DNA of 1,744 nucleotides, taken from assembly GCF_003334255.1 (NCBI RefSeq), contig NZ_QOWU01000151.1; one strand, written 5' to 3'. Positions 318 through 508 of this stretch are shown here, one piece after another (the first letter of the stretch is position 1; each line of letters starts with the position of its first letter). This stretch comes from Escherichia coli (GTDB lineage Bacteria > Pseudomonadota > Gammaproteobacteria > Enterobacterales > Enterobacteriaceae). Both the position numbers and the translations under genes were made by a program. A model generated the notes under the pieces. That model made no database searches. It saw nothing but the letters and a program-made list of their open reading frames with translations, and was not told the DNA's origin.

Positions 318-327
318 GCTGCGAAAC
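318..327. repeat. direct repeat GCTGCGAAAC, copy 1 (copy 2 at 494..503)
   Basis: Exact 10-mer present twice within the 383-bp intergenic region. Confidence 0.3.
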
Positions 328-449
328 TGTGGGTGGCGAGACGTACGAGGTTCGCAGTACCGGCAAACGCAGAACCCGGCCCGACCGAAGTCGGCCCCGT
401 ACGCCCCACCATAATTCGTGTGCGAAAAAGACGTGGCGATACAGTACGC

Positions 450-472
450 ACAAAAAAACCGCTGGCGCGGTT
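450..472 (-). terminator. candidate Rho-independent terminator on the minus strand
   Basis: Minus-strand RNA reads AACCGC-GCCA-GCGGUU (6-bp stem with 4 GC pairs, 4-nt loop) followed by UUUUUGUG; the plus strand has a run of seven A at 452..458. The stem is short, so this is tentative. It is not a plus-strand terminator, since the plus-strand 3' flank is GTGCGC. Confidence 0.35.
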
Positions 473-493
473 GTGCGCTACGTTTGTCAGCAG

Positions 494-508
494 GCTGCGA
501 AACCCGGC
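494..508. repeat. direct repeat GCTGCGAAAC copy 2 (494..503), fused to AACCCGGC (501..508), which also occurs at 373..380
   Basis: 494..503 is identical to 318..327. 497..508 (GCGAAACCCGGC) matches 369..380 (GCAGAACCCGGC) at 10 of 12 positions. Confidence 0.3.

Follow-up and report, generated by a model that had tools for sequence, protein, structure and literature searches.

The segment 562..270 on the minus strand of the window (the whole stretch of Escherichia coli DNA that was analysed, 1,744 nt) is very probably an antisense-RNA immunity module of the P1/P7 immI type and P4 type, carried by a P2-like (P88-type) prophage, in which the antisense RNA C4 silences an antirepressor. Judged from sequence, the exact 10-mer that occurs twice in this segment is a pair of docking sites for C4, which is encoded between the two copies, and not an iteron or a protein operator. 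The sites were called a1 and a2 in P1 terms because the P1 record annotates exactly this arrangement. The explanation is carried by the matches to RNA families, the layout of the elements, the complementarity among them, their three-way co-variation, and the identity of the downstream gene, all of which were observed.

Genomic context of the module

The window matched the chromosome of E. coli DETEC-S792 at 100%, where it lay within a P2-like prophage that adjoined dmsA and carried genes for a capsid scaffold, terminase, portal, replication endonuclease, and integrase around the window. The module was 86-89% identical to that of phage P88 and other Xuanwuvirus-type phages; in many Stx phages, the module was about 66-70% identical and adjoined antirepressor genes.

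The earlier note had placed the repeats in an intergenic region, which was only partly right: two RNA genes occupy the stretch, and a RefSeq plus-strand CDS extends back to 473. This CDS (window 473-1120 (+), equal to L001 9473-10120) encodes a 215-aa hypothetical protein on the strand opposite to the IsrK element, with which it overlaps. The RefSeq start at 473 is probably too far upstream because the alignment of the protein to phrog_6315 began only at ATG 656 (154 aa; residues 6-154 to profile positions 2-149). The protein contains a hydrophobic stretch, is oriented against the early operon, and resembles inserted cargo. Elsewhere in the window, the DUF4406 ORF at 1094-1408 (-) matched a nucleoside 2-deoxyribosyltransferase PHROG (phrog_355, E 1.6e-29) and adjoined a DNA adenine methylase within the early operon. 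An NCBIfam search with four ORFs returned zero matches.

The repeats in the window

The exact 10-mer GCTGCGAAAC was confirmed at 318-327 and 494-503. The 12-mer-like unit was also present, as GCAGAACCCGGC at 369-380 and GCGAAACCCGGC at 497-508; the two were identical at 10 of 12 positions and had the exact 8-mer AACCCGGC in common. GCGAAA at 422-427 and GCGAAT at 601-606 were found as described. The caution in the earlier note that a 10-mer repeat is near chance in a sequence of this size was justified: in 1000 dinucleotide-preserving shuffles of the 1744-nt window, a mean of 2.6 exact 10-mer repeat pairs was expected, and at least one pair was obtained with P = 0.84. The probability of an exact 10-mer pair was 0.09 within the 383-nt stretch 273-655 between the flanking ORFs and 0.04 within 318-508. 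The 10-mer alone was not significant in the window, and the question was therefore settled by comparison and not by within-window statistics.

Exact direct repeats in a non-coding stretch near a replication gene could be DNA-level sites, either iterons or operators, to which a replication or regulatory protein binds, and direct-repeat operators are known for P2-type C repressors (PMC2995052). However, only the two 10-nt copies, 176 bp apart, were present. No further copy with at most one mismatch was found on either strand of the window, and there was no array, regular spacing, or origin, where iterons would comprise at least three direct units of about 17-22 bp, regularly spaced, in an origin beside the initiator gene. 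The prophage repressor and the early promoter were also about 4-5 kb distant from the repeats.

The leader RNA, C4 and the predicted docking sites

Read on the minus strand, the module begins with a predicted promoter and a leader RNA, which consist of the following features.

533..562 (-): predicted sigma-70-type promoter from a consensus scan, with -35 TTGCCA at 562..557, an 18-nt spacer, and -10 TACATT at 538..533
452..526 (-): IsrK / P4 seqA-type leader RNA, matching Rfam RF01394 (isrK) over its full length with 67.2 bits (gathering threshold 50), E 9e-14
526..507 (-): leader hairpin 1
506..490 (-): leader hairpin 2, followed by a single-stranded segment
472..457 (-): predicted intrinsic terminator of the leader, a terminator-like site with a U-run to 452

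The promoter matched the consensus at only 9 of 12 positions, and its predicted start was near 526. Its -10 hexamer stood 6 nt before hairpin 1, a spacing shared with the annotated P1 promoter P1c4/P51b (TATAGT) and with the TATAGT that precedes the P4 leader. The leader directly precedes C4, with a spacer of 35 nt in the window compared with 107 nt in P4. A match to RF03163 (c4-a1b1) overlapped the leader with 20.5 bits, below the gathering threshold of 46.7. The c4-a1b1 model includes 13 nt upstream of hairpin 1 that were divergent in the window, and the isrK model captures the same element. For IsrK of Gifsy-1, Hfq binding and a trans-acting short RNA have been reported (PMC4825925).

A related observation concerned the two families themselves. 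The isrK (RF01394) and c4-a1b1 (RF03163) matches had overlapping coordinates wherever both scored (L118, L033, L040, L069, L128, which is P1, and the window). The family that passed its threshold varied by lineage: isrK passed in the window and in P4, whereas the P1 leader was above the threshold for c4-a1b1 and below it for isrK. The two appear to be two models of one element. In Rfam, isrK is listed without a clan, and C4 and c4-a1b1 share CL00128.

The antisense RNA, its two exposed segments, the four sites complementary to them, and an alternative hairpin were located as follows.

329..416 (-): C4 antisense RNA (P4 CI RNA homologue), matching Rfam RF01695 with 80.4 bits (gathering threshold 45), E 1e-15
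351..357 (-): a', CUGCGAA, within the unpaired joint that links C4 hairpin 3 to the closing stem; it complements the 10-mer core UUCGCAG
364..372 (-): b', CUGCGUUUG, placed by the Rfam alignment in the hairpin-3 loop of C4; it complements b1 and b2
494..503 (-): site a1 (second copy of the 10-mer), RNA GUUUCGCAGC in the loop of leader hairpin 2, core UUCGCAG at 501..495
478..486 (-): site b1, CAAACGUAG, located 3' of leader hairpin 2; its complementarity to the loop of C4 hairpin 3 includes one G-U pair, and the site matches the annotated b1 of P1
318..327 (-): site a2 (first copy of the 10-mer), RNA GUUUCGCAGC, beginning 2 nt after the Rfam C4 match, core at 325..319
281..291 (-): site b2, CACACGUAGAG, overlapping the Shine-Dalgarno sequence GAGG (283..280) of a 73-aa ORF (ATG 272..270)
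305..340 (-): alternative hairpin formed by the 3' arm of the C4 closing stem (340..332, CUCGCCACC) and 314..305 (GGAUGGUGAG), with a2 in the loop

The C4 match spanned model positions 1-87 of 87 with no non-canonical pairs flagged, and the same model scored 74.9 bits for P4 CI and 68.8 bits for P1 C4. The mature C4 presumably extends from about 410 to 332 (about 79 nt), as predicted from positional homology to the annotated P1 C4. In P1 and P4, RNase P cuts the 5' end of C4/CI from a longer precursor.

A sliding duplex scan of the whole transcript gave a1, b1, a2, and b2 as the best non-self partners of both exposed C4 segments, with the partner sets 506..491 with 488..473 and 329..314 with 292..277, the latter on the Shine-Dalgarno sequence. 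Site a1, at a position identical to that of the annotated a1 of P1, was the best duplex partner of the C4 joint (-14.2 kcal/mol). The duplex of a2 with the joint reached -11.3 kcal/mol, and this site corresponds to the a2 of P1, which lies 4 nt after C4. Both the a':a1 and a':a2 duplexes were short, with 7 contiguous pairs. The Rfam consensus of the joint is UGCCAAC with the target UUUGGCAG, and the window had UGCGAAC with UUUCGCAG, a compensatory swap of G:C to C:G. Of all sites in the transcript, b2 formed the best duplex with the loop of C4 hairpin 3 (-16.6 kcal/mol). This duplex contained one internal mismatch and two G-U pairs; the counterpart of the site is the b2 of P1 on the ribosome-binding site of icd. 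The UUC at 375..373 next to b' paired with the Shine-Dalgarno purines of b2. As expected of a C4 RNA, two exposed segments were thus complementary to two mRNA sites, one of which lay on a ribosome-binding site.

Co-variation of C4 with its targets

The comparison covered 34 distinct modules, drawn from prophages of E. coli, Stx phages, P4, and viral contigs of metagenomic origin. The pattern used to retrieve the viral loci fixed most of hairpin 2 and so restricted the diversity of the a site among these loci; no such bias affects the tandem copies, the Stx phages, P4, and P1. Changes in a C4 segment were accompanied in every lineage by changes in both of its targets. For the a sites, the sets of a1, a', and a2 included UUUCGCAG / CUGCGAAC / GUUUCGCAG, AUUUCCAC / GUGGAAAC / GUUUUCCAC, AUUGGCGU / ACGCCAAC / GAUUGGCGU, and UUUGACAG / CUGUCAAC / GUUUGACAG. 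The b sites were nearly freely variable (for example, CUAGCAAAG / CUUUGCUAG / CUAGCAAAGAGG), and the hypervariable b' co-varied with both of its targets, b1 and b2.

In an alignment of 31 sequences, pairing in the a1:a' helix reached 99.5%, and 6 of its 7 pairs showed double changes. For the b1:b' helix, pairing was 79.5%, and all 9 of its pairs showed double changes even though some rows were misaligned; over the two helices, double changes were present at 15 of 16 pairs. The upstream set overall was 88.7% paired, and its covariation was 0.565 compared with 0.163 for shuffled alignments (reached in 0 of 500) and at most 0.17 for slid ones. G-U pairs occurred at several helix positions, as expected of RNA pairing. 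The column-based count for the downstream set was weaker (67.3% paired) because the MAFFT alignment was shifted by one column in several rows, and the downstream relation therefore rests on a register-free permutation test. In this test, cognate targets were compared with permuted assignments, using one representative per specificity class and 20,000 permutations. The real pairing was matched by 0 permutations for a':a1, 1 for a':a2, 0 for b':b1, and 0 for b':b2 (each of 20,000). The mean longest run for b':b2 was 10.8 in cognate and 6.3 in non-cognate combinations.

The 7-nt core of a1 recurred exactly just after C4 in 31 of 34 modules, which represented 10 different cores, compared with 14 of 892 mismatched module pairs (1.6%). 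The earlier note had named co-conservation in related sequences as the way to judge the repeat, and on this point the outcome was clear, since the a1 core recurs as a2 in these 31 modules. That the repeats are a chance coincidence without function would agree with the shuffles of the window and with the post hoc nature of the observation, but it accounts neither for the exact recurrence of ten different cores nor for the compensatory co-variation with C4, and its probability is close to nil. For the 10-mer pair, chance is refuted; for GCGAAA at 422-427, GCGAAT at 601-606, and the AACCCGGC pair, it is the best reading.

The complementary third copy in C4 co-varied and tolerated G-U pairs, and RNA-RNA pairing is therefore indicated. 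Neither the co-variation of an opposite-sense copy nor the acceptance of G-U wobble is expected of a protein site, and both copies of the 10-mer lay inside RNA elements detected by Rfam. DNA-level sites for a replication or regulatory protein are thus highly improbable, only marginally less so than chance. The suggestion in the earlier note that the repeats are "iteron-like or regulator-binding" held for regulator binding, with an RNA as the regulator, but not for iterons or a protein-binding DNA site, given two copies and no array.

The remaining repeats that the earlier note had grouped with the 10-mer proved incidental, and the second real repeat pair, b1/b2, was absent from it. As RNA, both members of the 12-mer-like pair read GCCGGGUU. 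One supplies the 5' arm and the first bases of the loop in C4 hairpin 3, and the other does so in leader hairpin 2; these are two distinct conserved hairpins, and each copy is conserved for its own stem. The AACCCGGC copies have the same sense and are not complementary, and there was no evidence that they act as a repeat. GCGAAA at 422-427 was rejected as a third a-type site: in the second cassette of L002, a1/a'/a2 shift to a UUUCCAC type and the spacer still reads UUUUUCGCG. GCGAAT at 601-606 precedes the -35 element and falls outside the transcript.

Two further hairpins around a2 were evaluated in the same manner. The alternative hairpin 305..340 had 74.7% of its cells paired, double changes at 6 of 9 pairs, and a covariation of 0.239 compared with 0.145 for shuffled (0 of 500) and at most 0.13 for slid alignments, which gives it moderate support from comparative sequence data. 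The small hairpin 305..291 between a2 and b2 was 58.8% paired, and 99 of 500 shuffles reached its observed covariation score.

The putatively regulated gene and the frame opening at AUG 412

The gene whose ribosome-binding site is overlapped by b2 was identified from Pfam, PHROG, and BLASTP.

51..272 (-): 73-aa ORF (ORF73), homologue of the P4 epsilon helper-derepression (antirepressor) protein

ORF73 matched the Pfam Derepression family PF25738 (E 3.7e-7) and phrog_3688 (E 3e-41) and was 32% identical to P4 epsilon over 50 aa in BLASTP (E 8e-9); its homologue in E. coli G1/2 is annotated as 'derepression protein'. After ORF73 come, in this order, a 138-aa ORF and the replication endonuclease gene, which is the arrangement of a P4-type operon. 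The 138-aa ORF showed no similarity to P4 orf151.

At the 5' edge of C4, a conserved AUG at 412..410 opens a frame of 147 codons that extends to L001 8972 (-); it crosses C4 and then shares sequence with the epsilon-like ORF in a different reading frame. The frame was open in most modules but was broken in L018, L118_2437, L040, and L070, and the AUG was missing in L030 and L069. In L018, a close relative, a 2-nt loop insertion cut the frame to 16 codons. A conserved coding role is unlikely because the frame was broken or the AUG absent in several modules, and the frame was treated as incidental, not as a functional gene. In Stx phages, the 412 frame is continuous with the antirepressor ORF, and annotators therefore extend 'Ant' across isrK and C4. 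The 'orf45' of Gifsy-1 probably starts at an AUG homologous to that at 412.

The same RNA elements could also follow another logic, in which alternative folds in cis, a short leader acting as a trans-activator (the Gifsy-1 IsrK model), and translation of the 412-frame ORF coupled to that of the antirepressor take the place of trans-repression by C4. The minimum free energy fold of the read-through transcript, in which a1/b1 were paired with a'/b' in cis (z = -3.6), is in keeping with this logic, as are the use of the 3' arm of C4 by the alternative hairpin, the 147 open codons of the frame in the window and its openness in most modules, and the experimental support obtained in Gifsy-1 (PMC4825925). 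The interrupted frames and missing start codons listed above argue against it, and the genetics of P1 and P4 (background; P1 annotation) favour trans-repression by a processed RNA. As a replacement for C4 trans-repression, this logic is unlikely, although less so than the two explanations dismissed above; C4 trans-repression and the cis or activator logic are not mutually exclusive.

Diversity of modules and tandem cassettes

P88-type modules were otherwise near-identical, and the b triplet (b1, b', and b2) was the main difference among them, with at least 8 variants in 13 modules. The b variants were always concordant in all three places (window 364-372, 478-486, and 281-291; L002, L018, L035, L036, L078, L084, and L098). 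Such a pattern resembles the outcome of diversifying selection, or of an exchange of cassettes, for specificity of immunity.

Tandem isrK-C4-antirepressor cassettes were observed at L118 2350-5100 (-) and L002 3577-4524 (-). In L118, a viral contig, four cassettes followed one another at intervals of about 850 bp; each had an a/b specificity of its own and a Rha/Ant-like ORF whose C-terminal half was nearly identical between copies. E. coli G1/2 contained two cassettes with an epsilon-like ORF after each; their a sites were UUUCGCAG and AUUUCCAC, and their b sites differed too. Other RNA elements were found on viral contigs that carry a C4 module: four tandem STnc100 (RF02076) matches with two tRNA genes at L035 2082-4341 (-), and, at L040 2742-2809 (-), a match to the type II hammerhead ribozyme (66 bits against a threshold of 37), about 2.5 kb from the C4 module of that metagenomic contig.

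Comparison with known systems

The immunity region of P4 consists of seqA, the CI RNA (seqB), and seqC, ahead of epsilon and the alpha operon. In P4, both Rfam families matched above their thresholds, C4 at 8507..8420 (the CI RNA) and isrK at 8692..8615 (the seqA leader). One copy of the P4 10-mer GCGUGAGAAC is in the loop of hairpin 2 and the other immediately follows CI, like a1 and a2 of the window. The downstream copy of a second P4 repeat, AUUCACAGG, lies on a Shine-Dalgarno sequence, and CI carries the complements of both repeats. In P4 and in the window, epsilon or its homologue follows the module, and a replication gene comes after that. The two differ in the host element, which is a satellite in P4 and a full P2-like prophage in the window, and in their a and b specificities. 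ORF73 stands directly after b2 in the window, whereas P4 has another small ORF (MATTLTPSHPE...) there and epsilon begins about 245 nt after CI.

With the immI of P1/P7, the window shared the order and the positions of the elements (a1 in the hairpin-2 loop, b1 3' of it, then C4, and a2 a few nucleotides after C4). In P1, b2 lies on the ribosome-binding site of a 73-aa first ORF (icd), as in the window. The downstream genes of P1 are icd and ant, whereas those of the window are not, ORF73 being epsilon-like, and no C1 operator is expected in the window.

The IsrK - STnc1160 (orf45) - anrP region of Gifsy-1 in Salmonella has the same organization as the window, with an IsrK-family leader that has its own terminator, read-through into a C4-like region, and then an antirepressor. 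About 30 nt of the Gifsy-1 leader pair with the downstream region (PMC4825925), which in the window corresponds to the pairing of a1/b1 with a'/b', and the minimum free energy fold described above resembles structure A of Gifsy-1 (PMC4825925). The Gifsy-1 prophage belongs to the lambdoid type and its antirepressor to the AnrP type, in contrast to the P2-like prophage of the window with its epsilon-like protein. The Gifsy-1 model involves a short IsrK activator and translation of orf45 (PMC4825925), whereas the equivalent frame of the window was not conserved across modules. The IsrK and C4 motifs were catalogued by Weinberg et al. (PMC2864571), the equivalences of IsrK with seqA and of C4 with CI have already been published (PMC3632133), and lysogens of Gifsy-1 express IsrK and STnc1160, the equivalent of C4, at high levels (PMC7067206).

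Proposed mechanism and implications

From the known systems we infer, by analogy, transcription, processing, the block of translation or termination, and the decoy role of the leader. The promoter near 562..533 would drive the IsrK/seqA-type leader, which would display a1 in a hairpin loop, then b1, and would end at the intrinsic terminator. Read-through transcripts would contain C4, which is presumably excised as an RNA of about 79 nt. In C4, b' would be exposed by the loop of a hairpin and a' by the unpaired joint, and these would pair with b2 and a2. The pairing at b2 would hide the ribosome-binding site of the epsilon-like antirepressor gene and block its translation, and by analogy with P4 and P1 the pairing of C4 may also cause premature termination. 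Neither the lysogen nor a superinfecting phage with matching specificity would then express the antirepressor, the 138-aa ORF, or the replication endonuclease gene. For the same C4 segments, the upstream copy a1/b1 would serve as a second docking site. In cis, it may permit an alternative fold of the unprocessed transcript; in trans, it may take the form of a short RNA that serves as a decoy and titrates C4, a role that IsrK is reported to play in Gifsy-1.

The antisense-RNA mechanism of immunity has been known from P1/P7 and P4 since the 1990s, and therefore the analysis resolves no open question; the copy in the window is an unannotated but ordinary member of the RNA immunity switch known from P1, P7, and P4. 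It is conceivable, if a little short of probable, that P88-type P2-family prophages run a two-layer immunity like that of P1, in which a protein repressor is combined with a P4-type RNA switch that gates their own epsilon-like antirepressor and replication gene, with the hypervariable b triplet as the address for many orthogonal immunity types, two to four of which would stand in tandem in genomes such as L002 and L118.

What RefSeq presents as an untitled gap and the start of a hypothetical protein can be reread as two regulatory RNA genes and four docking sites that would control an antirepressor. This would be of use in the annotation of P2-like prophages, which are common in E. coli, and in predicting the mutual immunity of prophages, since the a and b sites of 7-9 nt could be read straight from the sequence as an immunity address.
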